Assembly (NCBI GenBank): GCA_043815445.1
Contig: JBDRIY010000054.1
Location: 527 to 64,526 of the forward strand
Direction: 5' to 3'
Length of the DNA stretch: 64,000 bases
From: Candidatus Omnitrophota bacterium
Lineage (GTDB): Bacteria; Omnitrophota; Gorgyraeia; Duberdicusellales; 4484-171
In this document: positions 6,667 to 53,900 of the stretch, piece by piece
How the letters are laid out: the number at the start of each line of letters is the position of its first letter
Position numbering within the stretch: position 1 is the first letter of the stretch
Made by a program: the position numbers and the translations under genes
Notes under the pieces: generated by a model
What the model was told of the DNA's origin: nothing
Database searches by the model: none
Seen by the model: only the letters and a program-made list of their open reading frames with translations

Positions 6667-6883
6667 AAATCCTCCAAAGTAAATCCGAAATCCGAATATC
6701 GAAATCCGAAACAAATTCGAATGACCAAAATCCTAATAACCGAAACAATATTCCCCGTTTTGCCTGTCCGCCGTGGCGGGAAAATTTGAACATTCGAATT
6801 TAGAATTTGTTTCGAATTTCGTGCTTCGTATTTCGAATTTATTCATTTTTCTGATTTCGTGCTTCGAATTTATTATTCTTTAG
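6667..6883. repeat. MITE-like intergenic repeat, copy 1. Inverted arms aaatccgaaacaaat / atttgtttcg(a/g)attt flank a ~75 bp core. This copy has a GC hairpin insert and an internal tandem duplication.
   Basis: ~130 bp align with 14884..15027. Confidence 0.6.
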
Positions 6884-14883: not shown

Positions 14884-15027
14884 AACAAATAAAATCCGAA
14901 TATCGAAATCCGAAACAAATCCTAATGACCAAAATTCTAATGATCAAAACAATATTCTCTATTTTGAAAATTTGAACATTCGAATTTCGAATTTGTTTCG
15001 GATTTCGGATTTCGTGCTTCGGATTTA
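14884..15027. repeat. MITE-like intergenic repeat, copy 2 (same family as 6667..6883)
   Basis: Perfect 15-bp inverted arms aaatccgaaacaaat / atttgtttcggattt. High identity to copy 1. Confidence 0.6.
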
Positions 15028-15795
15028 CTACTTCTTAGTTTGTTTAGCAACAGAATCAATTGCCTTTTTTATTACTTCAGGGTCGCCTAGATAATAATGT
15101 TTGAGAGCTTTAAGATTTTCGTCAAGCTCATATACCAGGGGAATTCCCGTAGGAATATTAAAGCTGACGATATCTTCATCCGAAACATTATCGAGATATT
15201 TGACTAGGGCTCTTAAACTATTTCCATGAGCGGCAATGATAACTTTCTTGCCCTGCTTAAGGCTGGGCACAATAGTCTGCTGCCAGTAAGGAAGGAATCT
15301 ATCAACTGTATCTTTGAGACATTCAGCAAGAGGTAGTTCTTTTTCCCTTAACTCTTTATATCGGGGGTCATTTCCGGGGAAACGAGGATCGTCTTTAGTT
15401 AAAACTGGAGGCGGAATATCATAGCTCCTCCTCCAAGCCAAAACCTGCTCATCCCCATACTTTTGAACAGTTTCTACCTTATTTAAGCCCTGTAAGGCGC
15501 CATAATGCCTTTCATTAAGCCTCCATGAGCGATAAACCGGAATCCACATTAAATCCATATCTTCTAAAACTATCCAAAGAGTTGAAATTGCCCTTTTAAG
15601 AACCGAAGTATAAGCAATATCAAAGGTAAAACCCTGTTTTTTAAGGCTTTGGGCTCCGCTATGAGCCTCTTGGACACCTTTCTCAGACAACCCAACATCA
15701 GTCCAGCCGGTAAACCTATTTTCCAAATTCCAAGTACTCTCTCCGTGTCTCAATAAAACTAACTTAACCATTTTTTCTCCCTTTCCATTTAACAA
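15028..15795 (-). CDS. gpmA: 2,3-bisphosphoglycerate-dependent phosphoglycerate mutase
   Basis: [20 protein letters not shown] catalytic-His motif, 255 aa. Confidence 0.9.
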
Positions 15796-15836: not shown

Positions 15837-18800
15837 TTAGCACTTCGAGTATCCACAAGCATCACAAACCAAGCACCCTTCCTGATGCCGCAGGGCAAAC
15901 CCGCATTCTATACATACTCCCACAACGTTGTTTGAATTATTTTTATTAACCTTAATAGGGCTGGCATACTTGTGTCCACTGGGGTGCTCGCCGCCTACGA
16001 CTGCTCCTACCGGCGCTTCTTCTTGGACAAATGAAACTTTAACCTTCATCTCTTCTTTTTGGCCGGATGCTCTTTTTTCTAAAACTCTGGCAATGGCGTC
16101 AGCACAGGAAAAAATCTTTTTTCCCTTATCCCAAGAAGGAGAAGGGCACCTGATGCCTTTAAGCTGTTCAACAATAACTTTTACGTCAATGCCTCCTCTT
16201 AAAGCAAGAGAAACCAACCTTCCTACTGCTTCAAGCTGAGAAGCAGCACAACCGCCGGCTTTTCCCATTTGAGTAAAAACTTCAAAGAAATTTCCCTCTT
16301 CATCTTGATTAACCGTAATGTAAAGATTGCCGCAGCCAGTGTTAACTTTAGTAGTAGTCCCTAAAATTACTTCCGGCCTAGGCTTAGGGTAAGGCACAGT
16401 TAAGGAATAGCTTTCAATTTCTTTATTTTCCATACTTTTATCCCCTTCCTTTTTTTTATCTATTGTAAGAACTTGCACTTTTCGACTCCCATCCCTATAC
16501 ACTGTTATACCCTTACAATTAACCTTATAAGCAAGCAAATAAGCTTCTTTTATGTCTTCTACTTTAGCATCATTAGAAAAATTAATGGTTTTAGAAACAG
16601 CATTATCCGTATATTCCTGAAAAACTCCCTGCATTTTTATATGCCAAAATGCTGAAATGTCCATTGCTGTTCTAAAAATTCTTTTTACCTTGTCAGGTAC
16701 CTCTTTCATCCCCTGAATGCTTTCTCCTGAAGCTACCCTTTTCATCAGCTCTTTAGAGTAAAAACCTTGTTTTTTTGCTGTCCATTCAAAAGCAAGATCT
16801 GCTTCTAAAAGCTTTTCGCCGTCTAAAACATTACGAAAATAACATAAAGAAAAGTTAGGTTCAACTCCTGAAGAAGTTGGCCCGGCAATAATACTTATTG
16901 TTCCCGTAGGCGCAATCGTAGTCAAGGTCGCGTTACGCATCTTCATATTTTTTTTATGCCAAGTACTCCCTTCCCACGCCGGAAATACTCCTCTTTCTTT
17001 TGCTAATTCTAAAGAAGCGCCGCGCGCGATATCTTGAATAAAACTCATAACTTTTTTTGCTAAATTTATAGCTTCTTCGCTGTCATAAGGAATACCTAAG
17101 AATCCCAGCATTGTTGCCCAGCCCATAACTCCTAAGCCAATTTTACGAGTTTTCAAAGTACTAGTTTCAATTTGAGAAAGAGGAAACTTATTGCAATCAA
17201 TAACATTATCTAAGAACCTCACTGATTGAATAGTAACTCTCTTAAGCCTATCCCAATCTGTCTCAAACTTACCATTAATTTCTTTAATCATTTTTGATAA
17301 ATTTATAGACCCAAGATTACAACTTTCGTAAGGGAGCAAAATTTGTTCGCCGCATGGATTTGTTGACTCATATTTCCCTAACGCCGGCGTCGGATTATGC
17401 TTGTTCATCTTATCAATAAATATTATTCCCGGCTCTCCGTTTCTATGGGCGTAAACTGCTATAAGATCAAAGACTTCTTTAGCATCAAGCTCGCCAACAA
17501 CTTTATCTGAGCGGGGATCGCGTAACTCATATTTTTCTTCTCTTAAAACTTTCTCCATAAAATCATCAGTCAAAGCGATAGAAATATTAAAATTAGAAAT
17601 ATCGCCTTCTTTTTCTTTACACTTAATAAATTCTAAAATATCAGGATGATCCACACTTAATATTCCCATGTTCGCGCCGCGCCTCATTCCCCCTTGAACC
17701 ACAGCGTGCGTAGCAGCATCAAAAACTTTCATAAATGAAACTGGGCCTGAAGCTACTCCTCCGGTTGATTTAACAATACTATTTTTTGGGCGAAGGCGGG
17801 AAAAGCTAAAACCTGTTCCGCCGCCACTTTGATGAATTAAGGCGGTAGATTTAATAGCGTCAAAAATAGACTCCATGCTGTCAGCGACAGGGAGCACGAA
17901 ACAATTATGCACAGCCACTCCATTAGCTAAATAGCTATGGTCTTCTTCCACTTCTAAATTATACACATCTCCATCGAATGGCTTGCATTCTATTCTATCA
18001 ATTGGCCTCAATATTACATTTCCCGTCTTAATATATCGAGGAAATATTTTTCTTTCTCTGTATTTTCCTTTCTTTATCGCCTCTACTAATTGTTTACACT
18101 CGCTAGGGGCCGCACCAATTCTATATGCTTCTTCCGTTGCGCCTCTTGGCCTTCTATGAGTGATATTAAAATTATATCTGAGCCTTAATAGGACATTCCA
18201 TACATCATTTGCTAATTTTTCATTTGATAAGCTAACAAAAATTCTATCTTGTCTTTTCTCTTTTGAATAGCAACCATCTCCTCTAAATAACCCGACTAGC
18301 AAATTAAATTGTTTTTCTAATGGTAAAGTAATAACCCATGCGGGCAGCCTCTTTCCGTTGAAGCCTTTTCCAAATAATTTGTAGAACAACTCTGCTACTA
18401 TTATTGAACTAAATCTTATTTGAATTGTTTTTTGCTTCTCTGTGAATTCTTCCTTTGCTGTCAAATTAAATTTCTTCTTCATTGTCCTTCTAATTTCTTC
18501 ACAGAATTCTTTCTCTTTCAAATTAAATGTAAATCTTATCACGCTATATTTATCATATCTCTTGCTTAACGAACCGTCAGCTAACCACTGACCGATTAGT
18601 CTCAAGAAATCATTATCAATTCCTATCCTATTAGGTATATTTTTCCCTTCATTCGGTCTTCCTTTAGCTATTAAACAATCTCCTTTTTTTAAATAGATAT
18701 TATCCTTGAGATAATCTTCAATCTTTATCTCTTTTATGTCTTTTATTTCTCTATTTGTATTTACCACAACAAAATCGCCTTTTTCTAATTTTTTTACAGG

Positions 18801-19430
18801 TATCCATTTTGGTTCAAAGAATTGGCCGATAAACTCGCAATTTCTTTTATATTCCCCGGGTATTTTTAGACAATACTTTTTTATAAATCCATTACATTTT
18901 TTATTTTTCATTCTCTTACATACTAAATTTTCCTTTTTTACAGCGAGTATTGGGTGTTCTTCTGTAACACTCAAGCCAGGCCTCATAAGTCCCTGAATAT
19001 CTATAGCATAAAGCTTACCTCTATATTTTCTTTGATGCAACTCTAATACTTCTTTTGCTCTTCCCCGATCTGTTATTACTTTATCTCCTACTTCTATTTG
19101 GTCTATATTTTTATATCCAAGATTTGATAGAATCTTTTGCTCTTTTATAAAACAAGCAGATAACTGTCCTAGGTCTTTTCCGGCGTTCATTAGAGTAGGT
19201 GAGTTCGGCATAAACTCTAACTCTCTCATCATTTCAAAAAAATCTTTTTCTACTTTTTTTAAAGCCTCTTCATTAGCGCCGTATTTTTTTTCAATAGAAG
19301 CAATCGCGCCGGAAACTCTCTTTAAAAGTTCTTCTGGAGTTTCAATAACTTCTCCGGCGTTATTCTTTTTAAGATAACGTTTTTGTAAAACAATAAGAGC
19401 ATTAGACGAAAATTTTAACGAAGACTTCAT
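15837..19430 (-). CDS. nrdJ: class II (adenosylcobalamin-dependent) ribonucleotide reductase with an inserted intein and a Cys-rich zinc-ribbon tail
   Basis: The extein sequence SPTLMNAGKDLGQLSA|CFVLPVADSMESIFDAIKSTALIHQSGGGTGFSFSRLRP is split by a 417-aa insertion. The C-terminus is CIECGF...CLVCDACGYSKC. Confidence 0.9.
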   Translation of the reverse strand: MKSSLKFSSNALIVLQKRYLKKNNAGEVIETPEELLKRVSGAIASIEKKYGANEEALKKVEKDFFEMMRELEFMPNSPTLMNAGKDLGQLSACFIKEQKILSNLGYKNIDQIEVGDKVITDRGRAKEVLELHQRKYRGKLYAIDIQGLMRPGLSVTEEHPILAVKKENLVCKRMKNKKCNGFIKKYCLKIPGEYKRNCEFIGQFFEPKWIPVKKLEKGDFVVVNTNREIKDIKEIKIEDYLKDNIYLKKGDCLIAKGRPNEGKNIPNRIGIDNDFLRLIGQWLADGSLSKRYDKYSVIRFTFNLKEKEFCEEIRRTMKKKFNLTAKEEFTEKQKTIQIRFSSIIVAELFYKLFGKGFNGKRLPAWVITLPLEKQFNLLVGLFRGDGCYSKEKRQDRIFVSLSNEKLANDVWNVLLRLRYNFNITHRRPRGATEEAYRIGAAPSECKQLVEAIKKGKYRERKIFPRYIKTGNVILRPIDRIECKPFDGDVYNLEVEEDHSYLANGVAVHNCFVLPVADSMESIFDAIKSTALIHQSGGGTGFSFSRLRPKNSIVKSTGGVASGPVSFMKVFDAATHAVVQGGMRRGANMGILSVDHPDILEFIKCKEKEGDISNFNISIALTDDFMEKVLREEKYELRDPRSDKVVGELDAKEVFDLIAVYAHRNGEPGIIFIDKMNKHNPTPALGKYESTNPCGEQILLPYESCNLGSINLSKMIKEINGKFETDWDRLKRVTIQSVRFLDNVIDCNKFPLSQIETSTLKTRKIGLGVMGWATMLGFLGIPYDSEEAINLAKKVMSFIQDIARGASLELAKERGVFPAWEGSTWHKKNMKMRNATLTTIAPTGTISIIAGPTSSGVEPNFSLCYFRNVLDGEKLLEADLAFEWTAKKQGFYSKELMKRVASGESIQGMKEVPDKVKRIFRTAMDISAFWHIKMQGVFQEYTDNAVSKTINFSNDAKVEDIKEAYLLAYKVNCKGITVYRDGSRKVQVLTIDKKKEGDKSMENKEIESYSLTVPYPKPRPEVILGTTTKVNTGCGNLYITVNQDEEGNFFEVFTQMGKAGGCAASQLEAVGRLVSLALRGGIDVKVIVEQLKGIRCPSPSWDKGKKIFSCADAIARVLEKRASGQKEEMKVKVSFVQEEAPVGAVVGGEHPSGHKYASPIKVNKNNSNNVVGVCIECGFALRHQEGCLVCDACGYSKC
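17904..19154 (-). mobile_element. intein with LAGLIDADG homing-endonuclease domain inside nrdJ
   Basis: Begins with Cys right after LGQLSA. Ends VAVHN and is followed by extein Cys. Two LAGLIDADG-like motifs: LIGQWLADGS and LVGLFRGDGC. Confidence 0.8.
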
Positions 19431-31907: not shown

Positions 31908-33074
31908 CTATATGAATTCTTTAATACGCTTTTGCGCTGTTTTTGCCAACTCACAAAAATATTCTACTTCCTTATGCATATCTCCTGTCTCAAGATAAGC
32001 TTTGCCCGGGCACAATAAACAAAAATCAATCATATCACAGTTATAACACTTAGAATCCGTCTTGATCTTTACTCCGGCTATATTTTGAAATACAGAAAAC
32101 ATTTTTCTTATATCTTCCGGCTCTGCCTTTAATAAATCTATCCCTGGCTCGCGAATACAAGAACACATAAACATCTTCCCGTAAGGATCAATATTAACCC
32201 CGTCTAAACTGCCTGCCGCGCACCTAAAAAGCCTTTTATCACTAATAGTATTTTTCGTCATTCCTACGCCACTTTCATCATTCCCATATTTTTTGTCATT
32301 CCCGCGTTCCCTTTTGTCATTGCCCGGCTTGACCGGGCAATCCAGAAACATATTAATTCCGCCTTCGTCTTCTTCCACGCTTTGGACTTCAAACAACTTA
32401 TCTAATTCTACAATCTGTTCAGGCTTAAGCCGCAGACTGCACGGCGTGGTATCGCCGTCTAACCCCGCCTGCAATAATAAACCAGGCCTGAATTCCAAAC
32501 CTCTACTCTCCAAAAATTCTTTTATTTTCGGCAATTCTTCTAAATTCTGCTGAGTTGCCATAGTCTTTACTTTTAAGGGCAGATTTCTTTTTAAAATCAT
32601 ATCTAAACCTGCCATTGCCTTTTTATATGAACCTTTAACCCTAGTTATATTTTCATAAGTATTCTTGGTTACACCGTTAATAGTTATTTCAATGGCAAAA
32701 GGAGGCCTTTTTGCTAAATAGTCCGCGGCTTGTTCCGTTAAAGAATATCCTGTAGTAAATATAGTTATCAAAAAACCTTTATCTTTAGCATACTCATATA
32801 TTTCTAAAAAATCGTTTCTTTCTAAAGGGTCTCCGCCGGTAAAACAAAGCCAGATAACACCTAATTTATATATTTTATCAATGATAAGCTTAATCTGTTC
32901 AGTATTTAACTCTTTTTTAATATAAGAAGGCTTATTGTAACAATCACAATAACAATGCCCACAATGCAGGCCGCACTTAAAAGTAAGCTCAAACTGACAA
33001 ACATTCTGCTTACTAATCCGCCAGTTTTTTTTATGAGTATTTAAACTAAAATCCTTATATTGAATTGTCTTCAC
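31908..33074 (-). CDS. radical SAM / SPASM-domain peptide-modifying enzyme (paralog B)
   Basis: CGLHCGHCYC (CxxxCxxC), GGDPL, C-terminal Cys-rich SPASM block (CAAGS...CSCI...CYNC...CLLCPG). Contains a low-complexity insertion. Confidence 0.85.
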   Translation of the reverse strand: MKTIQYKDFSLNTHKKNWRISKQNVCQFELTFKCGLHCGHCYCDCYNKPSYIKKELNTEQIKLIIDKIYKLGVIWLCFTGGDPLERNDFLEIYEYAKDKGFLITIFTTGYSLTEQAADYLAKRPPFAIEITINGVTKNTYENITRVKGSYKKAMAGLDMILKRNLPLKVKTMATQQNLEELPKIKEFLESRGLEFRPGLLLQAGLDGDTTPCSLRLKPEQIVELDKLFEVQSVEEDEGGINMFLDCPVKPGNDKRERGNDKKYGNDESGVGMTKNTISDKRLFRCAAGSLDGVNIDPYGKMFMCSCIREPGIDLLKAEPEDIRKMFSVFQNIAGVKIKTDSKCYNCDMIDFCLLCPGKAYLETGDMHKEVEYFCELAKTAQKRIKEFI

Positions 33075-33075
33075 T

Positions 33076-34179
33076 TTAAACCTTTAATGATAGTGACTCT
33101 GCTTTACGTTTACTTTCCGAATCACAACTTGTAAAATCTTTATTATTAAGCCAAGCCTTAGCAGGGCACCACTTGCAATAATCTTCTAATTCACACTCCG
33201 AACATTGATAATTGTCATCAGGCTTTATATCTTTTACCGCCTTTTTCATCTTATCCCAGGCGCTTCTTAAACCCATTTTCAATATATTATATTTTAAATA
33301 ATCAATCATCAAACACATTTTTAATTCACCAAAAGGCGTAATAGCCGCCTGAGCCTGCCCCACCCCGCATTTAAAAAGACTATTCACGCTGCAAGCCGCA
33401 GGCTGCAGGCTACAGGCTTCTCCCCTTTCTCTTCCCTCTCTCTTGCTCCCTTCCTCATTGCTAACTGCTAATTGATAATTGCTAATTGATAATTCCCCCT
33501 TCTCCGTTCCCCCTTCATCCTTCGTTAACACCCCTCTATACTCAAACGGCTCCCTTGAACCGTCTAATCGCGGCAGAAGCATATCATCTAAACGGTGCAA
33601 CGCGCCTAATGAAGCGGCAAAATCTTGTATCTTTTTTATTTCCTTTTCATTTTCTTTTAAAACACAAGTTTTAAATCCCAAGCTAACCTCATTTTTACGT
33701 AAAAGTTCTATTGCCTTAAATACTTTATCCCTTGAACCGTTTGCTCCGCTAATAAGCTCAAACGCTTTTTTACTCATCCCGGGAATTGTAATATCCACTT
33801 TATTCGGACGCAGGCTCCCGAGTTGAGCCGCGATTTTCGCGTTAATCAAAGAACCATTGGTATAAATAATAATCTCGAAACCGGATTTCTTAGCATAACT
33901 AAGAATTTTTATTATATCCTTCCTCATAAAGGGCTCGCCTCCAGTAAACCCTAAATAAAAACAGCCTAAGTCTTTCAATTGGTCTAAAATAATACATATC
34001 TCTTTTGTCTTAAGCTCTTTTTTCTTATTTTTGTAACTCTGCGGAACATAACAATGCCGGCATTTAAAATTACACTCATAAGTCAACTCAAACATCACCC
34101 GTAAAGGAAAAAGTTTCTCGCGCGCCTGTTTATGCAATTTCGCGTAAAATTCCTGATTAATGTCGGTTTTTATCGCCAT
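33076..34179 (-). CDS. radical SAM / SPASM-domain peptide-modifying enzyme (paralog A)
   Basis: CNFKCRHCY, GGEPF, SPASM Cys block (CGVGQ...CLMI...CSEC...CKWCPA). Ends 2 nt before the paralog B start. Low-complexity insertion at the equivalent position. Confidence 0.85.
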   Translation of the reverse strand: MAIKTDINQEFYAKLHKQAREKLFPLRVMFELTYECNFKCRHCYVPQSYKNKKKELKTKEICIILDQLKDLGCFYLGFTGGEPFMRKDIIKILSYAKKSGFEIIIYTNGSLINAKIAAQLGSLRPNKVDITIPGMSKKAFELISGANGSRDKVFKAIELLRKNEVSLGFKTCVLKENEKEIKKIQDFAASLGALHRLDDMLLPRLDGSREPFEYRGVLTKDEGGTEKGELSISNYQLAVSNEEGSKREGRERGEACSLQPAACSVNSLFKCGVGQAQAAITPFGELKMCLMIDYLKYNILKMGLRSAWDKMKKAVKDIKPDDNYQCSECELEDYCKWCPAKAWLNNKDFTSCDSESKRKAESLSLKV

Positions 34180-34308
34180 TATTTTCCTAAATCATTTACG
34201 TCTGAAGCGATTATCTAAAATTAGCTTCCCTGCCCTAAAAATTCATACAACAGAACCACAAAGAATAAGTTTTAAAAAATGGCGCAATCAAGCATTTTAT
34301 GCCTATTG

Positions 34309-35358
34309 CTAATTTTTTGCCCCAATAGCCAGCGCCCAATAAAAATACGCTTCCGGAATAACAGCCTGAAGCCTCTCAAGAATTTTATATTCCTTCGGAA
34401 ATGTCATTCCCTGAGTTAAGGATAAATCTATATTTTTTATAAGCCGCGGGTTTTCTTTATTTTTAAACATACTCGCCATATATACAATTTTAGCATAAGC
34501 AATTTTTATATCTTGTTTGTTTACCTTTTTCCCTAAATGATTGGTAACTTTAGCCAGGCCATCATCAATAAGCGCAATCTCCGAAAATGAATTATCAGCG
34601 CCTTTAAGTAATGCTTGTGAATATTTAAACGCGATATCTATAACATCATTGAGAACCTCATCCATAGAATAAGCTGTCCCGCGAAAATCATTCTCTTGTT
34701 GTACAGTATTCAGAAAACTCTGCTTCATGTCGTTGATGTCGCTTGCGATATTAAAAAGCTCATTTAAATCAATAATTTGCTTTACGCACTCCATTGACCG
34801 TTTTTCATTTAAAGGAATACCTATAGTCTTAGGCGAAATTGCTGTCATTTTATCGCCTAATAAGCCTTCCGGAGTTGGGATACTGACAACTGCATTTGAA
34901 TTGAAGAATACCAGCGGAAATTTTGATATGTTTTTCTCAACTAGTTTCTTATATGGATACTTTGTAAAAACAACGTCTAAAAGTATATACTGCTGTTCTT
35001 TTGAGAAATGTGATGTAAACTGAAATTTATAATGCGCTTTTGGTATCTTACTGCCGCGAATATTCTCTTTTACGATATTGAACCACTGTGATGTTGATAT
35101 CATCTTGACAAGCGCGCCTTTCAACCCTGCCCGCTCTTCCAGCGGCAAAAGAATATCAATATCTATAGATAGCCGGGCTGGCGGAAAAATATGTAAAAGG
35201 ATAGATGTCCCGCCCTTAAATACCAGCTTCGAATAAACGCCAAGTAATTCATCCAATAAATTAAAGGCATAAACTGTCTTTTCGAAAATTCCACGGTCGC
35301 TAAACCCAAGCTCTTTTCTTAAAGATTCCAACTGATTAATATCTATCTGTTTCTTCAT
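34309..35358 (-). CDS. nucleotidyltransferase AbiEii/AbiGii-family toxin (type IV TA / abortive infection)
   Basis: FKGGTSILLHIFPPARLSIDIDILL (GGT ... R.S.DID motifs). Confidence 0.75.
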   Translation of the reverse strand: MKKQIDINQLESLRKELGFSDRGIFEKTVYAFNLLDELLGVYSKLVFKGGTSILLHIFPPARLSIDIDILLPLEERAGLKGALVKMISTSQWFNIVKENIRGSKIPKAHYKFQFTSHFSKEQQYILLDVVFTKYPYKKLVEKNISKFPLVFFNSNAVVSIPTPEGLLGDKMTAISPKTIGIPLNEKRSMECVKQIIDLNELFNIASDINDMKQSFLNTVQQENDFRGTAYSMDEVLNDVIDIAFKYSQALLKGADNSFSEIALIDDGLAKVTNHLGKKVNKQDIKIAYAKIVYMASMFKNKENPRLIKNIDLSLTQGMTFPKEYKILERLQAVIPEAYFYWALAIGAKN

Positions 35359-35382
35359 AAAAACTACTTTTCTCTTGGTTAT

Positions 35383-36114
35383 CTATGGCAGTAAATTATA
35401 CTTATTGCCATAGATACCATTGTTAAGTCCAAGTTTATCAATGAGTTGTGAAATTAGCTTTCGGAGGTTTCTCCGTCTAACAGCATAATCAAAAACCGCA
35501 GCAAAATTTATCCTGTAAAGATCGTAAATAAATCCCCATAGCTCCCAATAATCAGCTTCCGGCATTATTCTGTATTTATCTTTAATAACATAAAGATCTA
35601 CCATCATCTTTTCAAGATCCGGCTTATGCCCATTTCTTGGTGACCGGTTAATAAGGGAACGCGCAATAATTGGATTTTTTGTAATGTCAAATCCCGCGGG
35701 AGAATCCTTACTTTTAGTTTCCACGAACACATAGCGGTAAAACTGAGATATTCTATCAGTTACAGGATGAACGCCGTCATATTCAACCTCTACAAAAGTG
35801 ATGTGGTGTGTTTGCTGATGATGATAATAAGGCTGAAAATATAATGTATTCCAAATAAGAAAATCAAGATCAGGAAATTCCTTTTTGATAAGCTGACGAA
35901 TTTTAATAACACGGTTATTTTTCGGACAAATAAATTCCTTTGAAACAGAAGTATATAGACCGCGCCCAGCAGAAAAAACAATTTTTTCGTCTTTAAACGA
36001 CTGTAGATAATTAAGTAACGTCTGCCTTCCAAGCCTCGTATCCTTAACAATCTGCGCTAAAGAAAAATAACGATGATTTCTTATGTATTCTCTAATTAAT
36101 TCTTTTTTATCCAA
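35383..36114 (-). CDS. AbiEi-like antitoxin / transcriptional regulator paired with AbiEii
   Basis: Co-oriented with and immediately upstream of the AbiEii gene. Winged-helix-like N-terminus IREYIRNHRYFSLAQIVKDTRLGRQTLLNYL. Confidence 0.5.
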   Translation of the reverse strand: MDKKELIREYIRNHRYFSLAQIVKDTRLGRQTLLNYLQSFKDEKIVFSAGRGLYTSVSKEFICPKNNRVIKIRQLIKKEFPDLDFLIWNTLYFQPYYHHQQTHHITFVEVEYDGVHPVTDRISQFYRYVFVETKSKDSPAGFDITKNPIIARSLINRSPRNGHKPDLEKMMVDLYVIKDKYRIMPEADYWELWGFIYDLYRINFAAVFDYAVRRRNLRKLISQLIDKLGLNNGIYGNKYNLLP

Positions 36115-36315
36115 AGCTCACCTCGATTTTGATAATTCAAGCTTCTTTGCTCTACACTGGCTATTATAACATTGGGAATTTGAAAAATGAAGAGGCTATT
36201 ACAATGGCCCCCGAAGCCTGCCCTGATTATTATATCGGGATTCCACAAGGATAATGCTAAAGGATAAACAGATATATTTACGGCAAATAACTGGGTCCTC
36301 TTTCCTCTGGTTTGC

Positions 36316-36434
36316 TTGATTAATATCAGTTTTTATCGCCATTGCCTTCCTAAATCATTCGCGCCTGAAGCGATTATCTAAAATTAGCTTCCCTACCTTA
36401 AGAATGTCTACCACAGAGTCACAAAGACACAAAG
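36316..36434. repeat. duplicated copy of the upstream region + first 8 codons of rSAM paralog A (original at 34154..34272)
   Basis: ~110 nt near-identical. Includes atggcgataaaaactgatattaat (MAIKTDIN), with no downstream continuation. Confidence 0.6.
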
Positions 36435-36460
36435 TAGAAACAAACCCCTGTATCTGTCCG

Positions 36461-36895
36461 TTATAGAACCATTCTCTTTACGCCGTTTTTCATTAAATCA
36501 GTATTAAAATTCAAAATTAACCCTATGCTTAATCCTGTTAATTTTAAATAGGTTAGCAATTGCGCTTGATGAACAGGTAAAATATTTTCTACACATTTCA
36601 TTTCAACTATCACTATATTTTCTACAATTAAATCAATCCTGTATTTTTCCGCTAACTTTATGTTTTTGTAAACGATAGGGATCTCTTTTTGCCTTAGATA
36701 CTTAACTTTATTTAATTCAAATTCCTTACATAAACATTCCTCATAGATAGATTCTAATAATCCATGGCCTAAGTGTTTATGAACTTCTATAGCACATTTT
36801 ATTATTTTTTCCGATATTCTATTCCTTAACTCTAATTTATCCATTGTATTCCTCTGTGCCTCCGTGACTCTGTGGTTTAAAGTTTTCATACCCAC
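36461..36895 (-). CDS. GxxExxY-family protein (PD-(D/E)XK-like)
   Basis: HGLLESIYEECL (G-x-x-E-x-x-Y) motif. 144 aa. Confidence 0.65.
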   Translation of the reverse strand: MGMKTLNHRVTEAQRNTMDKLELRNRISEKIIKCAIEVHKHLGHGLLESIYEECLCKEFELNKVKYLRQKEIPIVYKNIKLAEKYRIDLIVENIVIVEMKCVENILPVHQAQLLTYLKLTGLSIGLILNFNTDLMKNGVKRMVL

Positions 36896-36922
36896 TTATG
36901 TATTTTCGCGTAAAATTCCTGA

Positions 36923-38068
36923 TTAATGCCGGTTTTCATCGCCATTTTTCTGTTTATTTTCTAACTCTTCATTTAACGCCCGCGCTAATTCGCAATAATA
37001 AGGAACTGGGGCTTCTTCATCGCCTGTTTCTAAATAGGCTCTGGCCGGGCAGTGATAACAAAGCGCGCGTAACTTACAATCCCTGCATTTTGAGTCAGTT
37101 TTAAATTTCTCGCTTAATAATTTAGGAAATGCTTTATAAAACCCTTCCGCGAACGATACTTTCTTTAAATCCACGCTAAACTTATCAGAAAAAGCGCAAA
37201 ACTTAAGCCGGCCATAAGGATTAATAAAAAACTGGCTCATCCAGGCATTACAGCGGTAAAGAAATTGCCTGTCTCTCTCTAAATCAGGAAAATCATTGTC
37301 TAATCCTTTTTGATACTGCTTCCAAATATCAGAATCCTGCTTTTTCGCCTCTATCAATTCTTGGGCAGAAAGCCTATACTGACAAGGAGTTTTATCTCCA
37401 TTAAACCGGGGGTATATCATTGGATCATATTTAAAATAGTATTTATTCTTTGCCGGTTTTCCCAGAAGTTCTTCAGTAAATTCTTTTATCTTACCGACTT
37501 CATTTTTATTCTGCTTAAGACAATTTGTTTTTAGTATTAAGGGGAGTTTTTTCTTTGCTAATAATTTAACAGTTCTCATCACCTTAGAAAAAGAGCCCTG
37601 AACCTGAGTAATCGCTTCATAAGTTCTTTGGGTTATGCCATTTAAGGTAATTTCTATAGAACAAGGCGGGGATTTAACCAGATAAGAAATGATTTCTTTT
37701 GTAAATTTTTGGCCATTGGTAAAAACAGTTATAATAAATCCTTTTTCTTTAGCATAAGCGTATATCTCTAAAAAATCCTTTCTGATTAAAGGGTCTCCGC
37801 CGGTAAGAGCCAGCCAAAGGCATCCTTGCTTGTGAATTTCATCAAGAATTGTCTTCCATTGCTTTGCGGTTAATTCTTCACCCCTATTTTCGCTCCCTTT
37901 GCAGTAGCAGTGGCCGCAGTTCAAATTGCAGCGATAGGTAAGCTCAATATGCGCGCTCCAAGGATAATGTTCTTTCTTGTTTTGCAGTTTATTATAAAAA
38001 CGGCCGGAGTTTTGAACTTTCATATAAAAAGTTTTTCCTTTATAGACAAACTTAATCTGCGCGCCCAA
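36923..38068 (-). CDS. radical SAM / SPASM-domain peptide-modifying enzyme (paralog C), directly downstream of precursor peptide 1
   Basis: CNLNCGHCYC, GGDPL, SPASM Cys block (CNAW...CAFS...CRDC...CYHCPA). No low-complexity insertion. Confidence 0.85.
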   Translation of the reverse strand: MGAQIKFVYKGKTFYMKVQNSGRFYNKLQNKKEHYPWSAHIELTYRCNLNCGHCYCKGSENRGEELTAKQWKTILDEIHKQGCLWLALTGGDPLIRKDFLEIYAYAKEKGFIITVFTNGQKFTKEIISYLVKSPPCSIEITLNGITQRTYEAITQVQGSFSKVMRTVKLLAKKKLPLILKTNCLKQNKNEVGKIKEFTEELLGKPAKNKYYFKYDPMIYPRFNGDKTPCQYRLSAQELIEAKKQDSDIWKQYQKGLDNDFPDLERDRQFLYRCNAWMSQFFINPYGRLKFCAFSDKFSVDLKKVSFAEGFYKAFPKLLSEKFKTDSKCRDCKLRALCYHCPARAYLETGDEEAPVPYYCELARALNEELENKQKNGDENRH

Positions 38069-38116: not shown

Positions 38117-38326
38117 TTAAGAATTAGCGGATGTCAGCGACCAGTTATTACTGTTCCCTCTATGGCCCTTCCCACTGTAACATATATCGGCCCGTAGAGG
38201 CCAGTTAGTCTCACCCCTAAGCGGGTAGATTTTACCAAGATCCCAACAATCGCACATTAGCACCGCCTGTTCCGCATTAAGTTTTACCCGTGTAATTTCC
38301 GGCTTAAATTTTGGTTTTCTAAGCAT
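38117..38326 (-). CDS. candidate RiPP precursor peptide 1 (69 aa from Met17 of the ORF-track entry)
   Basis: MLRKPKFKPEITRVKLNAEQAVLMCDCWD leader shared with two other peptides. Core has 1 further Cys and ends ...TSANS. AGGAGG lies 7 nt upstream of the ATG. Confidence 0.6.
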   Translation of the reverse strand: MLRKPKFKPEITRVKLNAEQAVLMCDCWDLGKIYPLRGETNWPLRADICYSGKGHRGNSNNWSLTSANS

Positions 38327-38366
38327 TCCCGTGACCTCCTTTCGTTTTTTATTTTTTATAATAAAA

Positions 38367-39965
38367 CTACTCAATTATAAATATCTGAATTGCTTCAAGG
38401 CCGTTAGGGTAATAAATCGTTTTGATTGGGACTTTATGAGAATATTCTTTTTTAAAAGAAACATATTTATAAATAAACAAATCACCCCAATAATCCTGAG
38501 AATGAGATTCCGGCGCCCAAAGAACATAAATTCTTTTTTTTTGTTCTTTTTCGCCTTGAACTAAACGAAAATCATAATATTTATCTATTTTGCCTTTTTC
38601 CCAAAGGTAATAATTAAGGTAAAAATCCGTTGTCATTCTGCTATCTTGAATTATAACATAATCTTTAATGTTATCCAATTGGCTTAAATATTCCCCGGCC
38701 TCTTGACAGCCATAACTATTATGCCGGCACTGGCCTAAATCCAGAGGCGCGGCGTAACAAAACTTTGTCCATTGCACTGCCTCCGTAATTATTAAACTAA
38801 AGCAAAATGTACCCGTAATAATCAAAATGAACGCTTTTGTAAAGCCTTGTTTTTGCAAGCCATAGTTAAATATCTGCGCAATGAACTTAGCAATTAAAAT
38901 TATTATCGGCGGCAAAATAATAAGAGCGTATCTTGGCTGAAAAAAATTCACTCCGCCTAAAACTCCTATCAACCCTAAAATCAGCCAGGTTAAAAGAATT
39001 TTATCCGCTGTTTTCCTTTGAAAAAAAGAAGTAATACAAGAGGTGAATAAAAGAAAAAATGCTATTGGGTGAGCTAATAATGGCGCTTTCAAAGCCTTGC
39101 CGTAAAGCAAAGATGAGCTTTTAAAGTTAAAAAACAACTCTTTAAAGGTAAATAACGTATTATTTTTAATATTTACCCAAATATTAGCAAATAAATTACC
39201 TTTAAAAATGTTTTCCTGATACGCGCGGTAGAAACTTTGCCCGAATTCATCTCCCCTTATCATACTTTTATAGATAAAAGGCAAGCTGAATAAACCCGCG
39301 ATTAATAATAAAATAACAGTTATCTTGGAATTTAAAAGATATCTCGCATCTTTTTTAGCCCATATTAACGATATAAAAAATATAGGGGCAAAAAGGGCCG
39401 CGGACTCATAACTTACTAAAGATTTTTGCATAAAAAAACAAGATAATATAAACCATAGCCCAATCCCTATTTTTTCTTTATTCTCAATTGCTTTAAAAGC
39501 CTTGAACAAACTTAAAAAAATTAAACAGCCGAAAAAAGGAACCCAAATTACCCTGCCCATAATCCGGCTATGAATTAAATGCCAGGGAAGAAAACATAGC
39601 AAAAGTGAAGATATTAGAGCTGTTTTACGGCCATACATACACTTTGCTAATATATACAGCAATACAACTGTCCCCGCCCCTATGATTATCGGCTCAAAGC
39701 GGCAATGAATCATAAAATTGTTTAGGGTAAATACTTCCGGCGAAGATATACGTGAAATCAAAAAAAAACGCAGAGAATAGGGGATAAAAAAAATTATAGG
39801 TATACCTATGATTTCTTTAATTAATTCCGGCCAGATCAGTAAAATCCTTGCCCAATTAGCTTCATCATGATTTACGGGCAACATCTTTATATTATAAAAT
39901 CTTATAATAAACGCGCCGATGAAAATAACAATAATTAATAAAATATCCGGCAGTAATCGCTTCAT
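38367..39965 (-). CDS. GT-C-fold membrane glycosyltransferase (PMT/ArnT-like), paralog 1, 40 nt upstream of peptide 1
   Basis: Multi-TM. First-loop acidic motif NHDEANWAR. PMT_2-like block LLCFLPWHLIHSRIMGRVIWVPFF. ~150 aa C-terminal soluble domain. Start set at MKRLLPDILL by homology to the paralog (ORF-track start 40010). Confidence 0.55.
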   Translation of the reverse strand: MKRLLPDILLIIVIFIGAFIIRFYNIKMLPVNHDEANWARILLIWPELIKEIIGIPIIFFIPYSLRFFLISRISSPEVFTLNNFMIHCRFEPIIIGAGTVVLLYILAKCMYGRKTALISSLLLCFLPWHLIHSRIMGRVIWVPFFGCLIFLSLFKAFKAIENKEKIGIGLWFILSCFFMQKSLVSYESAALFAPIFFISLIWAKKDARYLLNSKITVILLLIAGLFSLPFIYKSMIRGDEFGQSFYRAYQENIFKGNLFANIWVNIKNNTLFTFKELFFNFKSSSLLYGKALKAPLLAHPIAFFLLFTSCITSFFQRKTADKILLTWLILGLIGVLGGVNFFQPRYALIILPPIIILIAKFIAQIFNYGLQKQGFTKAFILIITGTFCFSLIITEAVQWTKFCYAAPLDLGQCRHNSYGCQEAGEYLSQLDNIKDYVIIQDSRMTTDFYLNYYLWEKGKIDKYYDFRLVQGEKEQKKRIYVLWAPESHSQDYWGDLFIYKYVSFKKEYSHKVPIKTIYYPNGLEAIQIFIIE

Positions 39966-40140
39966 TTTTTTATGAAACTTTAACTTTCCCATTTTTCGCG
40001 CAGTCCTCAAAGGGTGCTACATTCTTCAATTATCCAAAATTATAAATTCCTGTTTTTACATAATGGCAGCTATAGGGAAAAATGCCTGTGGACGCCTGTC
40101 AACCGATAAACTATAATTAATGTAGATTACAAAGATTAAA

Positions 40141-41565: not shown

Positions 41566-41790
41566 TTATGAATTTGAACATCTAGCAGTGCAGTTCTCTT
41601 GGGTAGGTCCAGGCACAGATCTGCAGTATCCGCTTCCCTTTGACGTACAAATCTTCTCCATCCCATCGACAGTACGGAGAGCACCGCCGTCAAGCCAGCC
41701 ATCATCGTAACAGTCACAACTTAATACTGCTTGTTCAATATTAAGTTTTACTTTTGTTATTTCCAGCTTAAATTTTAGTTTTTTAGGCAT
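41566..41790 (-). CDS. candidate RiPP precursor peptide 2
   Basis: MPKKLKFKLEITKVKLNIEQAVLSCDCYD leader. Core has 4 further Cys and ends CSNS. AGGAGGTG RBS. Confidence 0.6.
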   Translation of the reverse strand: MPKKLKFKLEITKVKLNIEQAVLSCDCYDDGWLDGGALRTVDGMEKICTSKGSGYCRSVPGPTQENCTARCSNS

Positions 41791-42048
41791 TTCTCACCTC
41801 CTTGTAATAGAATCACACTACTTTGTTAAAGACTCAAAACATATCCCTTTAAACCTTAAATTCTATAAAACTCAAAATGAATTCCCTTGAGGTAAATATG
41901 ATTTAAAATTTAGATCTAAGCTTAATTTTGCTAAAAAACTTGTTGATGAAATATAACATAAGGTGTCAGCTTTTCTTATCAGCACAATTAGATTAGATAT
42001 TCTAAATCCTAAAAAAATAAATCTCCAAATCGATAAATACAAAAGAGT

Positions 42049-42255
42049 TTAAGATGTGTGACAAGATGAATCGCACTGCGTCCTCCTCGTCATCGTACGA
42101 GTAGCCGGATCGCACACCATTAAATTTGGCAGTCTCGCACGATGTGAACTTCCCTCCCTGCCACTCCATTGGTAACAACCGCAATATAACACTGCCTGCT
42201 CCACTTTGAGTTTTATCTGTATAATTTCCGGCTTAAATTTTAGCTTTCTAAACAC
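42049..42255 (-). CDS. candidate RiPP precursor peptide 3
   Basis: MFRKLKFKPEIIQIKLKVEQAVLYCGCYQW leader. Core has 3 further Cys and ends SCHTS. GGGAGGT RBS. Confidence 0.6.
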   Translation of the reverse strand: MFRKLKFKPEIIQIKLKVEQAVLYCGCYQWSGREGSSHRARLPNLMVCDPATRTMTRRTQCDSSCHTS

Positions 42256-42289
42256 TTCTTACCTCCCTTTTTAAACCTCTACTATTTAT

Positions 42290-43894
42290 TTATCTAAGTA
42301 TAAATATCTGAATTGCCTCAAGCCTATTGGGGTAATAAATAGTTTTGATTGGCCTTTCATCTGGATATTCTTTTTTAAAAAAATTAAACTGCCGAGCAAA
42401 TAAACCGCCCCAATAATCCTGATGATGAGATTCCGGGGCCCAAAGAACATAAATTCTTTTTTTTTGTTCTTTTTCGCCTTGAACTAAACGAAAATAATAA
42501 TATTTATCTATTTTTCCTTTTTCCCAAAGGTAATAATTAAGGTAAAAATCCGTTGTCATTCTGCTATCTTGAATTATAACATAATCTTTAATATCATCCA
42601 ACTGGCTTAAATACTCCGCGGCCTGTTGACAGCCATAACTGTTATGCCGGCACTGATTTAAATCCAAAGACGCGGCATAACAAAATCTTGTCCATTGCGT
42701 CATCTCAGTAACGATTAAACTAAAACAAAGCGCGCCCGCGGTAATCAGGATAAACGCTCTCCTAATTCCTTGTTTTTGGAAACTATAACTAAACATTTGA
42801 GAAATAAATTTAGCGACAATAATTACCATCGGCGGTAAAATAATAAGGACGTATCTTGGTTGGAAAAAACTCACTCCGCTTAGAACTCCCGCAAACCCTA
42901 AAATCAGCCAAATTAAAAGAAGCTTATCCGCTGTTTTCCTTTGGAAAAAAGAAATAATACAAGATACAGTTAGAAGAAAAAATACTATCGGGTGCGCCAG
43001 TAAAGGAGCTTTTAATGCCCGGCCGTAAAGCAAAGATGAACTTTTAAAGTTAAAGAATAAATCTTTGAAGGCAAAGGCAGTATTATTTGTAATATTTGCC
43101 CAAATGTTAGCGAATAGGTTGCTTGTAAAGATATTCACCTGATACCCGCGGTAAAAGTCTCTCCAAAATTTATCTCCTATTGTTATAATTTTATAAATAA
43201 AAGGCAGGATAAATAAAGAAACAATTAGCAATAATGCAATGCCTGTTTTGGGGCTTAAAAAGCTTTTTCTTTCTCCCATAATCCAAAATAATGACACAAA
43301 AAGTATCGGAATAAAAATAATCGCGGATTCATAGCTTGTCAAAGACCCTTGCAGAGAAAAACAAGATAGCAAAAACCATAATCCGGCCCATATTTTTTCT
43401 TTATTCTTGATTGCCTGCAAGGCTTTAAATAAACTTAAAAAAATCAAACAGCCAAAAAAGGGAATCCAGATCACCCTGCCCATAGTCCTGCTATGAATTA
43501 AATGCCAAGGAAGAAAGCATAATAAAAGTGAAGATATAAGGGCTGTTGGACGGCCATACATATATCTTGCCAATATATATAACAATACAACTGTGGCCGC
43601 CCCTATGATTATTGGTTCAAAACGGCAATGGACTATAAAGTTATTTAGGGTAAATGTTTCCGGCACAGATACGCGCAGAGCTAAAAAAACCCGTAAAAAA
43701 TAAGGTAGAAAGGGAAAGGAAATTACAGGAATACCTATAATTTCCTTAATAAATTCCGGCCTTTTCAGCAAAAACCTTGCCCAATTCGCTTCATCATGAT
43801 TTATAGGTAGTATTTCTATATTGTAAAATCTTATAATAAACGCGCCGATAAAAATACTAGTAATTAATAAAATATCCGGCAGCGATCGCTTCAT
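42290..43894 (-). CDS. GT-C-fold membrane glycosyltransferase (PMT/ArnT-like), paralog 2, 34 nt upstream of peptide 3
   Basis: ~75-80% identical to paralog 1 by eye. Same NHDEANWAR and PWHLIHSR blocks. Confidence 0.55.
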   Translation of the reverse strand: MKRSLPDILLITSIFIGAFIIRFYNIEILPINHDEANWARFLLKRPEFIKEIIGIPVISFPFLPYFLRVFLALRVSVPETFTLNNFIVHCRFEPIIIGAATVVLLYILARYMYGRPTALISSLLLCFLPWHLIHSRTMGRVIWIPFFGCLIFLSLFKALQAIKNKEKIWAGLWFLLSCFSLQGSLTSYESAIIFIPILFVSLFWIMGERKSFLSPKTGIALLLIVSLFILPFIYKIITIGDKFWRDFYRGYQVNIFTSNLFANIWANITNNTAFAFKDLFFNFKSSSLLYGRALKAPLLAHPIVFFLLTVSCIISFFQRKTADKLLLIWLILGFAGVLSGVSFFQPRYVLIILPPMVIIVAKFISQMFSYSFQKQGIRRAFILITAGALCFSLIVTEMTQWTRFCYAASLDLNQCRHNSYGCQQAAEYLSQLDDIKDYVIIQDSRMTTDFYLNYYLWEKGKIDKYYYFRLVQGEKEQKKRIYVLWAPESHHQDYWGGLFARQFNFFKKEYPDERPIKTIYYPNRLEAIQIFILR

Positions 43895-52840: not shown

Positions 52841-53434
52841 ATGCTTGTTTTAATGAGTGGTAATATAATGACTACGAAATATCTTATTTCCAGCAACTGT
52901 CAAAAAATTTTAAAATACCTCCTTTTAAACTCCGGTAAATCTTGTTATGAACGGGAAATTGCCAGAGGATCCGGGGTTAGCTACGGATCTGCAAACCGCC
53001 TTTTAAACGACTTGTATAAAAAAAGAATTGTTGAAAGAAAAATAGAAGGAAAAATGAATTATTATACAGTAGCCTCATCAAACCCTTATCTTCAAGAATT
53101 TAAAATTCTAATCAATTTATTGCTTCTAGAGCCTTTGATTGAAAAACTTAAACCGTATACCCGTAAAATAGTACTTTTTGGCAGCTGTACCACTGGTGAG
53201 AATACACAAGAAAGTGATATAGACCTTTTTATCTTAACTACCGGAGAAGATATAGTTCGTTCGATAATCAGCAAATATTCTTATTCTCCCAAAATTGCTA
53301 ACAAGAAAATACAGGCTATAATAGAATCACCTGCTGATATGGCAAAAACAGCTAAAGAAAGCAAAGTATTTATAGAGCAAGTAAAAAAAGGGAAAATCCT
53401 TTGGGAAAGTGAAATCAATGAAGATTACCTTTAA
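52841..53434 (+). CDS. minimal nucleotidyltransferase (MNT) with N-terminal winged helix, antitoxin-type partner of HEPN
   Basis: LFGSCTTGENTQESDIDLFIL (GS-x9-11-DxD). Confidence 0.6.
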   Translation: MLVLMSGNIMTTKYLISSNCQKILKYLLLNSGKSCYEREIARGSGVSYGSANRLLNDLYKKRIVERKIEGKMNYYTVASSNPYLQEFKILINLLLLEPLIEKLKPYTRKIVLFGSCTTGENTQESDIDLFILTTGEDIVRSIISKYSYSPKIANKKIQAIIESPADMAKTAKESKVFIEQVKKGKILWESEINEDYL

Positions 53435-53900
53435 AGACTGTTTGGCCCGAAAAAGAATTTTTATTTTTGAAGCGGCAAAACATTTAACTGATCTTGAGAT
53501 TAAAGATGCCGAAGACGATTTACAATCAGCAAAACAAGAGTTTGCTAACTCCGGTTTTAAATGGGCAACCATAAAAGGCTACTACGCGATGTTTCACACT
53601 GCAAGGGCTCTTCTTTATTCCAAAGGATATAGAGAACGCGGCCATTACTGTCTTTATTTAGCAACAAAAGAACTTTTCGTGAAAGACGGCGCCCTTGAAA
53701 ATAATTTAGCCGAAGCCTTCCAACAATCTATGATTTTGCGTGAAGACGCTGACTATAAACGAAACTTCTCAAAAAAGAATGCCTCAGCCGTAATTAAAAA
53801 CGCGAAAAAGCTCCTTAAAGCGGCAAAAGCTATTTTAAAAATAAATAATAAAAAGAAACAGACATTAAAAAAGAAAAAAATCTCTCCTTCCAATCAGTAG
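53409..53900 (+). CDS. HEPN-domain protein (toxin-type partner of MNT)
   Basis: Helical. FHTARALLYSKGYRERGHY R-x-H-type region. 26-nt overlap with the MNT gene. Confidence 0.5.
   Translation: MKSMKITFKDCLARKRIFIFEAAKHLTDLEIKDAEDDLQSAKQEFANSGFKWATIKGYYAMFHTARALLYSKGYRERGHYCLYLATKELFVKDGALENNLAEAFQQSMILREDADYKRNFSKKNASAVIKNAKKLLKAAKAILKINNKKKQTLKKKKISPSNQ

Follow-up and report, generated by a model that had tools for sequence, protein, structure and literature searches.

A probable two-step insertion of a GxxExxY cassette and an AbiE module at an overlapping maturase junction in an Omnitrophota peptide operon

The 64,000-nucleotide stretch of Candidatus Omnitrophota contig JBDRIY010000054.1 analyzed here (the window) carries a radical S-adenosylmethionine (rSAM) peptide-maturation operon in which a GxxExxY gene and an AbiEi/AbiEii gene pair stand between two maturase genes, rSAM C and rSAM A. 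All genes between 28 and 45 kb are encoded on the minus strand, in the order precursor peptide, rSAM C, GxxExxY, AbiEi-like, AbiEii, rSAM A, rSAM B, HprK/ScmC-like protein, PqqD, and ABC exporter. The host operon resembles the SynChlorMet (SCM)-type rSAM/SPASM cassettes (ScmC/E/F, PqqD) in having three rSAM/SPASM genes together with an HprK-related ScmC-like protein, PqqD, an ABC exporter, and several Cys-rich precursors, but differs from them in that all of its matches fall far under the equivalog cutoffs; it is an Omnitrophota-specific relative. The two maturase genes and the three genes between them are all intact, the insert reads in the direction of the operon throughout, and three copies of the rSAM A 5′ end are present, each on the minus strand (Table 1).

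Table 1. Features of the rSAM C/rSAM A interval (window coordinates) and comparable four-helix-bundle cassettes at other loci (coordinates of locus L003, L007, or L024)
Feature	Coordinates	Strand	Remarks
rSAM C	36923..38068	-	radical SAM/SPASM maturase, intact; Pfam Radical_SAM 6e-23 plus SPASM
Copy 3 of the rSAM A 5′ end	36896..36949	-	apparent relic of the ancestral rSAM A start (MAMKTGINQEFYAKIHK); still serves as the rSAM C 3′ end
GxxExxY cassette	36409..36889	-	481 bp; homology with cassettes of other phyla begins at ATGAAAACTTTAA and ends at CTCTGTGGTA
Cassette 5′ arm	36852..36876	-	ACCACAGAGTCACGGAGGCACAGAG = (CACAGAGN)3
Cassette 3′ arm	36410..36434	-	CTTTGTGTCTTTGTGACTCTGTGGT
Copy 2 of the rSAM A 5′ end	36316..36427	-	partial cassette 3′ arm, 66-nt leader, first 27 nt of rSAM A (MAIKTDINQ)
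Region upstream of AbiEi	36115..36315	-	apparently arrived with the AbiE unit; extended -10 TGTTATAAT at 36171-36163
AbiEi-like antitoxin/regulator (DUF6577)	35383..36114	-	243 aa, TTG start; PF20217 3.7e-44; PADLOC AbiEi PDLC02235 1.2e-35
AbiEii nucleotidyltransferase toxin	34309..35358	-	full length, 349 aa; PF08843 1.2e-17; PADLOC PDLC02299 3.9e-78
Copy 1 of the rSAM A 5′ end	34154..34272	-	degenerate cassette 3′-arm relic (CTTTGTGGTTCTGTTGTA), leader with AGGAAA ribosome-binding site, functional rSAM A start (ATG 34179)
rSAM A	33076..34179	-	radical SAM/SPASM maturase, intact, 367 aa; Pfam 6.6e-24
Four-helix-bundle cassette, L003	9563-10011		
Four-helix-bundle cassette, L007	7001-7450		
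Four-helix-bundle cassette, L024	1940-2435		

Family profiles agree with the identities that the initial annotation had given to the three inserted genes (TIGR04256 and PF13366 for GxxExxY, PF20217 and PADLOC AbiEi for AbiEi, PF08843 and PADLOC AbiEii for AbiEii). The GxxExxY gene can be read as a long open reading frame (ORF) of 142 aa (36889-36461) or as the NCBI-annotated ORF of 127 aa (36844-36461); its match to TIGR04256 (3e-44, 150.1 bits) lies far over the cutoff of 35, PF13366 (PDDEXK_3) matches at 6e-43, and the translation contains the motifs GLLESIY and D...VEMK, corresponding to a PD-(D/E)XK fold with an intact D...ExK. AbiEii scores 65 bits against PF08843 (cutoff 22.5), is covered by the PADLOC profile over residues 2-345 of 349, carries the motifs KGGTS and DIDIL, and has homologues of 347-351 aa; it follows AbiEi in the same orientation after a gap of 24 nt. 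Solved structures include no sequence-detectable homologue of any of the three proteins.

The functional copy of the rSAM A start (copy 1) and the copy upstream of AbiEi (copy 2) were paired by the repeat search over 111 nt (34154-34264 and 36317-36427, spacing 2163) with 85% identity, and by MAFFT the pairing reaches about 34272/36434. Copies 1 and 3 match over 54 nt (34130-34183 and 36896-36949) with 91% identity. A segment of about 27 nt, ATGGCGATRAAAACYGRYATTAATCAR, is common to all three copies. Exact counts give 24 of 27 coding nucleotides for copies 1 and 2, where homology ends, 22 of 27 for copies 2 and 3, and 37/39 and 46/50 for copies 1 and 3; copies 1 and 2 have A9 and A17 in common, differing from copy 3. 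The recurrence described in the initial annotation is thus real, with different dimensions: copy 2 contains 27-29 nt of coding sequence and about 85-92 nt of upstream sequence rather than 39 and 110 nt, and the third fragment, counted there as 36/39, matches at 37 of 39 positions and extends to 50 nt. When up to three mismatches are allowed, the window contains two occurrences, and no more, of the 39-mer at the rSAM A start and likewise two of a 47-nt core of the leader preceding it (44/47 between copies 1 and 2), with none expected from 100 shuffles. Copy 2 heads a relic ORF of 47 codons (36342-36199) that matches no Pfam family. Copy 3 heads a 19-codon ORF (36945-36886) and, as had been noticed at the outset, covers the last seven codons of rSAM C in a different frame, for 23 nt including the stop.

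The position of copy 3 is explained by the organization of related operons. Orthologues of rSAM A (45-68% protein identity) were collected from 13 genome loci and 52 metagenome loci, 34 of which carry both rSAM C and rSAM A on the contig; rSAM C orthologues in L002-L047 are 58-70% identical. In 27 of these 34 Omnitrophota loci rSAM A directly follows rSAM C, and wherever junctions were read (L001, L002, L004, L006, L010, and L011) the rSAM A start overlaps or abuts the rSAM C stop. The position of copy 3 equals that of the rSAM A start in L002, L006, L010, and L011; its second ATG (ATGAAAAC, MKT...) aligns to the MKTQSY-type starts of relatives, and the TAA stop of rSAM C falls within codons 7-8 of the relic. 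Because rSAM C abuts or overlaps rSAM A in most relatives, copy 3 evidently marks the ancestral junction: the comparison indicates that rSAM A began 23 nt ahead of the rSAM C stop, and that copy 3 is where rSAM A originally started, a stretch that rSAM C continues to use as its 3′ end. The ancestral adjacency of the two genes, proposed in the initial annotation, is borne out by this comparison, with the addition that the genes originally overlapped, and so is the proposal that foreign genes entered the 5′ end of rSAM A, which was regenerated intact.

What lies between the copies is best read as two successive insertions, the GxxExxY cassette and then the AbiE module. They constitute two units rather than one because each is separately bracketed by repeats and each is found alone in unrelated contexts. 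The GxxExxY cassette keeps the same arms in L066, L067, L068, L082, L084, and L085, the DUF6577-AbiEii pairing recurs in L077, L078, and L080, and the two units are never linked in the other genomes examined. Their order follows from the copies themselves: copy 1 keeps TCTTTGTGGTTCTGTTGTA, homologous to the cassette 3′ arm, and two derived bases unite copies 1 and 2 to the exclusion of copy 3. The copies are therefore related as ((1,2),3), GxxExxY having arrived first and AbiE second. The insert is not compositionally foreign, its GC content being flat at about 0.35.

Collectively, we consider it likely that the interval is a two-step composite insertion at the overlapping-maturase junction of an SCM-like rSAM peptide operon. 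In the first step, a 481-bp cassette with a PD-(D/E)XK-fold gene between 25-nt inverted (CACAGAGN)3 arrays would have arrived, adding a 66-nt leader and a fresh rSAM A 5′ end and leaving the old 50 nt as the tail of rSAM C. In the second, a 2.05-kb AbiEi(DUF6577)/AbiEii module with its own upstream region would have entered the regenerated rSAM A behind codon 9, with a duplication of about 119 nt comprising the arm relic, the leader, and 27 nt of rSAM A. Since the genes overlap by 23 nt, an insert between them would destroy one gene unless the overlap were duplicated; overlapping genes and selection for a working operon would thus explain why the surviving insertions carry duplications. In L003 and L024, where other genes occupy this junction, the rSAM C frame or tail runs into an array and no duplication is seen, so the overlap appears to have been solved otherwise. 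The most likely process would be recombination anchored on one side by rSAM A homology, either as homology-facilitated illegitimate recombination with a diverged allele or as a Campbell-type single crossover of a circular intermediate. We infer this mechanism, because no relative closer than 68% protein identity was found among genome contigs, metagenome contigs, or in a search of 5.8 billion proteins. Cut-and-paste transposition is an unlikely alternative, as neither the other cassette sites (L066-L068) nor the other AbiE loci have direct repeats at their flanks. A DNA transposon or insertion sequence was likewise rejected, as no transposase family matched and the duplications measure 54 and about 119 nt.

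In the resulting arrangement, the rSAM C stop would be kept inside copy 3, AbiE would be expressed from its own extended -10 promoter, presumably autoregulated by AbiEi, and rSAM A would be translated from the leader ribosome-binding site. Given the co-orientation of the genes and the lack of predicted terminators within the insertion, read-through is possible. By analogy with other AbiE systems, AbiEii would stop growth upon phage infection.

The main rival explanation, which we regard as unlikely, is site-specific accretion, in which ATGGCGATRAAAACYGRYATTAATCAR served as the core of an attachment site (att) and two integrase-less islets were integrated in tandem by a trans-acting recombinase, each islet, as a cis-mobilizable element, bringing a replacement rSAM A 5′ end, in the manner of genomic islands at tRNA and gene ends. 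The topology is indeed that of a tandem-integration product, attL-element-att-element-attR, with three imperfect direct repeats and a regenerated target. However, no integrase, excisionase, or transposase was found in the insertion or among the scanned window ORFs, the extent of homology differs by copy pair (54 nt without the leader versus 111 nt with it), and att-like repeats are absent from the other genomic sites of either unit. The same features set the locus apart from known islets flanked by duplicated gene ends, whether formed by att-mediated tandem accretion or by homology-facilitated illegitimate recombination: the inserts are likewise bracketed by imperfect direct repeats and the gene is regenerated, but here no recombinase was found in the insertion or the scanned ORFs, and the repeats, which come from the 5′ end of a gene, are not of the same extent in the two events.

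The proposal of the initial annotation, that GxxExxY and AbiE entered rSAM A together as one recombining cassette and that the native rSAM A promoter was thereby duplicated and may now drive the Abi genes, is improbable. The leader between the cassette 3′ arm and the rSAM A ATG does contain a GATAAT -10-like hexamer and a Shine-Dalgarno sequence, and its 48-nt core is identical at 45 of 48 positions between copies 1 and 2, which is better conserved than the flanks and could reflect either a function of the leader in both copies or gene conversion between them; copy 2 may therefore have promoter activity. Nevertheless, a single event is contradicted by the nesting of the copies, by the repeat lying between the two units, and by the fact that the units are unlinked elsewhere. 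Moreover, the ancestral rSAM A had its start within rSAM C and no spacer ahead of it, so that the leader cannot have been its promoter at that stage and would have appeared only with or after the GxxExxY insertion. The first ~16 nt of the leader resemble the post-arm sequence of other cassettes (L066 and L068), including the Shine-Dalgarno-like TTAAGGNAGG. A sigma-70 scan for a consensus promoter yielded just a 9/12 site overlapping the ATG, and as a structured RNA the leader was rejected as well, with no match in Rfam and fold z-scores of +0.4 and +0.5. Nor would AbiEi need a borrowed promoter, as the 200 nt of its own upstream region include a perfect extended -10. The duplicated native promoter and its role in driving the Abi genes are thus not supported here.

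Homing by the GxxExxY protein is quite improbable. In this scenario, the junction was cleaved by the PD-(D/E)XK protein and filled with the cassette during repair, which left the first duplication as a by-product. The intact D...ExK motif and the presence of cassettes with about 82% DNA identity at unrelated operon junctions across phyla are compatible with such a process; however, there is no duplication at three other cassette sites (L066-L068), we know of no nuclease activity or target for the GxxExxY family, and the AbiE step would be left unexplained. Finally, a contig chimera or strain mixture joined through the repeats is very improbable, since an assembler produces identical duplications, and mis-joins in the graph require longer exact repeats, whereas the copies have diverged (85% and 91% identity, with a longest shared exact stretch of about 30 nt by inspection), all ORFs on either side are undamaged and sensibly ordered, and the GC content is flat; on the sequence side, the artefact against which the initial annotation had cautioned is accordingly argued against.

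Several observations nonetheless weigh against the two-step insertion that we prefer. The arrangement has been seen once, on a single metagenome-assembled contig, from which all 100% matches (P0001, P0121, and P0241) derive, and an exact-sequence look-up of rSAM A returned no record. No empty-site or intermediate allele was seen, the nearest rSAM A relatives being 66-68% identical at the protein level. No further copy of the 48-nt leader core turned up in the window, among 86 loci, or in viral contigs, and blastn-short of the leader against the window and 65 loci was likewise negative. Lastly, the 15% divergence between copies 1 and 2 is compatible with either an old duplication in situ or import from a diverged allele.

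The GxxExxY unit is delimited at 36889-36409 because DNA homology to loci of the L066-L068 type is confined to these bounds; cassette DNA has a mean identity of ~82% across phyla in a three-way alignment, and homology is lost beyond them. The closest GxxExxY homologues (76-85% protein identity) occupy unrelated neighborhoods, with tyrS in L066, cbiM downstream in L067, and sua5 and rpiB on either side in Ratteibacteria L068. The two arms are 25-nt inverted arrays of three octamers each, which pair on the sense RNA at 25 of 25 positions (21 Watson-Crick and 4 G.U) and fold into an uninterrupted 25-bp stem. Inverted octamer arrays surround all seven GxxExxY loci inspected (the window, L066, L068, L082, L084, L085, and, in degenerate form, L067); in L066 they lie at 1616-1644 and 2039-2067. 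In an alignment of the arms of six cassettes, from which one base per arm of L085 was removed by hand, 93% of 150 cells pair, compared with 31-59% when the 3′ partner is slid, and two-sided changes occur at five arm pairs, mainly through the compensatory variant CGCAGAG/CTCTGCG of L085. All four G.U pairs of the window arms fall on the sense strand, with a duplex energy of -47.7 versus -33.4 kcal/mol. Over the six cassettes the strand bias is 11:5 (p = 0.21, not significant), and duplex energies reveal no consistent strand preference. The arms may thus act as DNA, in the form of terminal repeats, or as an RNA stem cut by RNase III, similar to an intervening sequence (IVS).

The arms are also linked to translation. 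Within the long ORF the 5′ arm is translated as HRVTEAQR, and the GAGG Shine-Dalgarno sequence of the short ORF comes from the last unit of this arm; N-terminal extensions such as HRDTETQR, present in about 20 of the best 120 homologues, are translated (CACAGAGA)3. The long GxxExxY ORF begins at an ATG overlapped by the TGA of the 19-codon relic of rSAM A (ATGA, 36886-36889), and an ATGA overlap with the upstream gene recurs in L068 (3001-3004) and L084 (1201-1204), which suggests that translation of the cassette is coupled to that of its host gene. In the literature searched, the GxxExxY family is only mentioned in passing with its function listed as unknown, and no description of octamer arrays was found; the family description is likewise silent on the arrays seen around every member examined.

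The closest known architecture is that of the 23S rRNA IVS, in which an ORF of the 23S_rRNA_IVP/four-helix-bundle family (TIGR02436) lies within a stem cleaved by RNase III. The cassette likewise consists of a small ORF between inverted repeats, which pair into an unbroken stem on the sense strand, and genes of the 23S_rRNA_IVP family arranged in this way occur at the rSAM C/rSAM A junction itself in L003 and L024. The difference is that the host is a protein-coding operon, not rRNA; Rfam contains no RNA family matching 33.0-38.5 kb. The junction is a recurrent site of insertion: it holds 23S_rRNA_IVP/four-helix-bundle genes in L003, L009, and L036, an independent four-helix-bundle gene, just 32% identical, in L024, an IS200-like Y1 transposase (tnpA) in L022 (1401-1790), and an extra rSAM gene in L007. 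The four-helix-bundle genes, too, lie between inverted octamer arrays, of the AAACTGTT type in L003 and L007 and the GTAGCACG type in L024. With the arms counted, the cassettes of L003 and L007 share 83.6% identity over 440 nt; they occupy different junctions and are surrounded by operon genes that are only 63-74% identical, so the cassettes move independently of the operon.

These observations raise the tentative possibility that GxxExxY and four-helix-bundle genes are carried by a widespread and hitherto undescribed type of mini-cassette bounded by hairpins, with arrays of at least three octamers, that would be mobile between operon junctions across phyla, coupled to its hosts through ATGA overlaps and in-arm Shine-Dalgarno sequences, and processed or mobilized via the arm stem, the rRNA IVS then being a special case of an 'operon IVS'. 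Separately, a hairpin of ~160 nt that contains no gene occurs twice in the window (83-88% identity), at 6688-6850 and 14892-15036, in the spacers after frr and mnmG; both copies are built of AAATCCGA/TTCGGATT-type short repeats and look like 'empty' cassette arms.

AbiE is a type IV toxin-antitoxin and abortive infection system, known from the Lactococcus plasmid pNP40 and reportedly treated in Streptococcus agalactiae by Dy et al. in 2014; related DUF1814 toxins include MenT. The module described here conforms to this type in being a two-gene operon with the antitoxin/regulator upstream and an AbiEii with GG(T/S) and DxD motifs. It differs in that the antitoxin belongs to Pfam DUF6577 rather than to the classical AbiEi families and in its location inside a peptide-maturation operon; elsewhere in Omnitrophota the DUF6577-AbiEii pair lies beside CBASS-like, HEPN/MNT, or helicase genes. 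Nucleotide homology to other AbiE loci is confined to the two ORFs, and the region upstream of AbiEi has no homology to the flanks of those loci. An arm-like pair around the AbiE unit, ACCAGAGGAAAGAGG and CTTTGTGGTTCTG, is low-complexity by eye and was not relied upon. A second toxin-antitoxin-like pair is encoded on the plus strand of the window at 52841-53900, where a nucleotidyltransferase gene (MNT, with a helix-turn-helix) overlaps a HEPN-domain gene.

The double insertion is a real event built from known families, AbiE and GxxExxY, and the recurrence of hairpin-bounded GxxExxY/four-helix-bundle cassettes at gene junctions may be a new by-product of its analysis; the hairpin-bounded architecture common to both gene families is the more novel lead. 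The locus provides a natural example of how overlapping genes constrain insertion, in that the overlap must be duplicated, and the sequence of the insertions can be read from the copies left behind. It also places a defense toxin-antitoxin module within a peptide-maturation operon, with which it is possibly co-transcribed, and in mining for clusters of ribosomally synthesized and post-translationally modified peptides or for defense islands, gene-neighborhood logic would falsely tie AbiE and GxxExxY to the pathway. GxxExxY and four-helix-bundle proteins are very abundant families of unknown function, for which the cassette arrangement, if true, would offer testable biology.

The host operon shows further repeats of its own. 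In-frame tandem arrays of the ATTGCTAA type occur in rSAM A (33457-33487) and rSAM B (32249-32302), and one of the GGTTATCG type in L003 (10653-10928); these short arrays sit in the variable linker between the radical-SAM and SPASM parts and account for the low-complexity stretches of the maturases. Three paralogous precursor-peptide gene starts (38243-38337, 41707-41801, and 42172-42266) are 69-75% identical, and a PMT_2-like membrane protein gene is present twice (38367-40010 and 42290-43894, 79-88% nucleotide identity), indicating that the upstream part of the operon was itself duplicated. Elsewhere in the window, the gene for the ribonucleotide reductase large subunit (15837-19430) contains an intein with a LAGLIDADG homing endonuclease domain.

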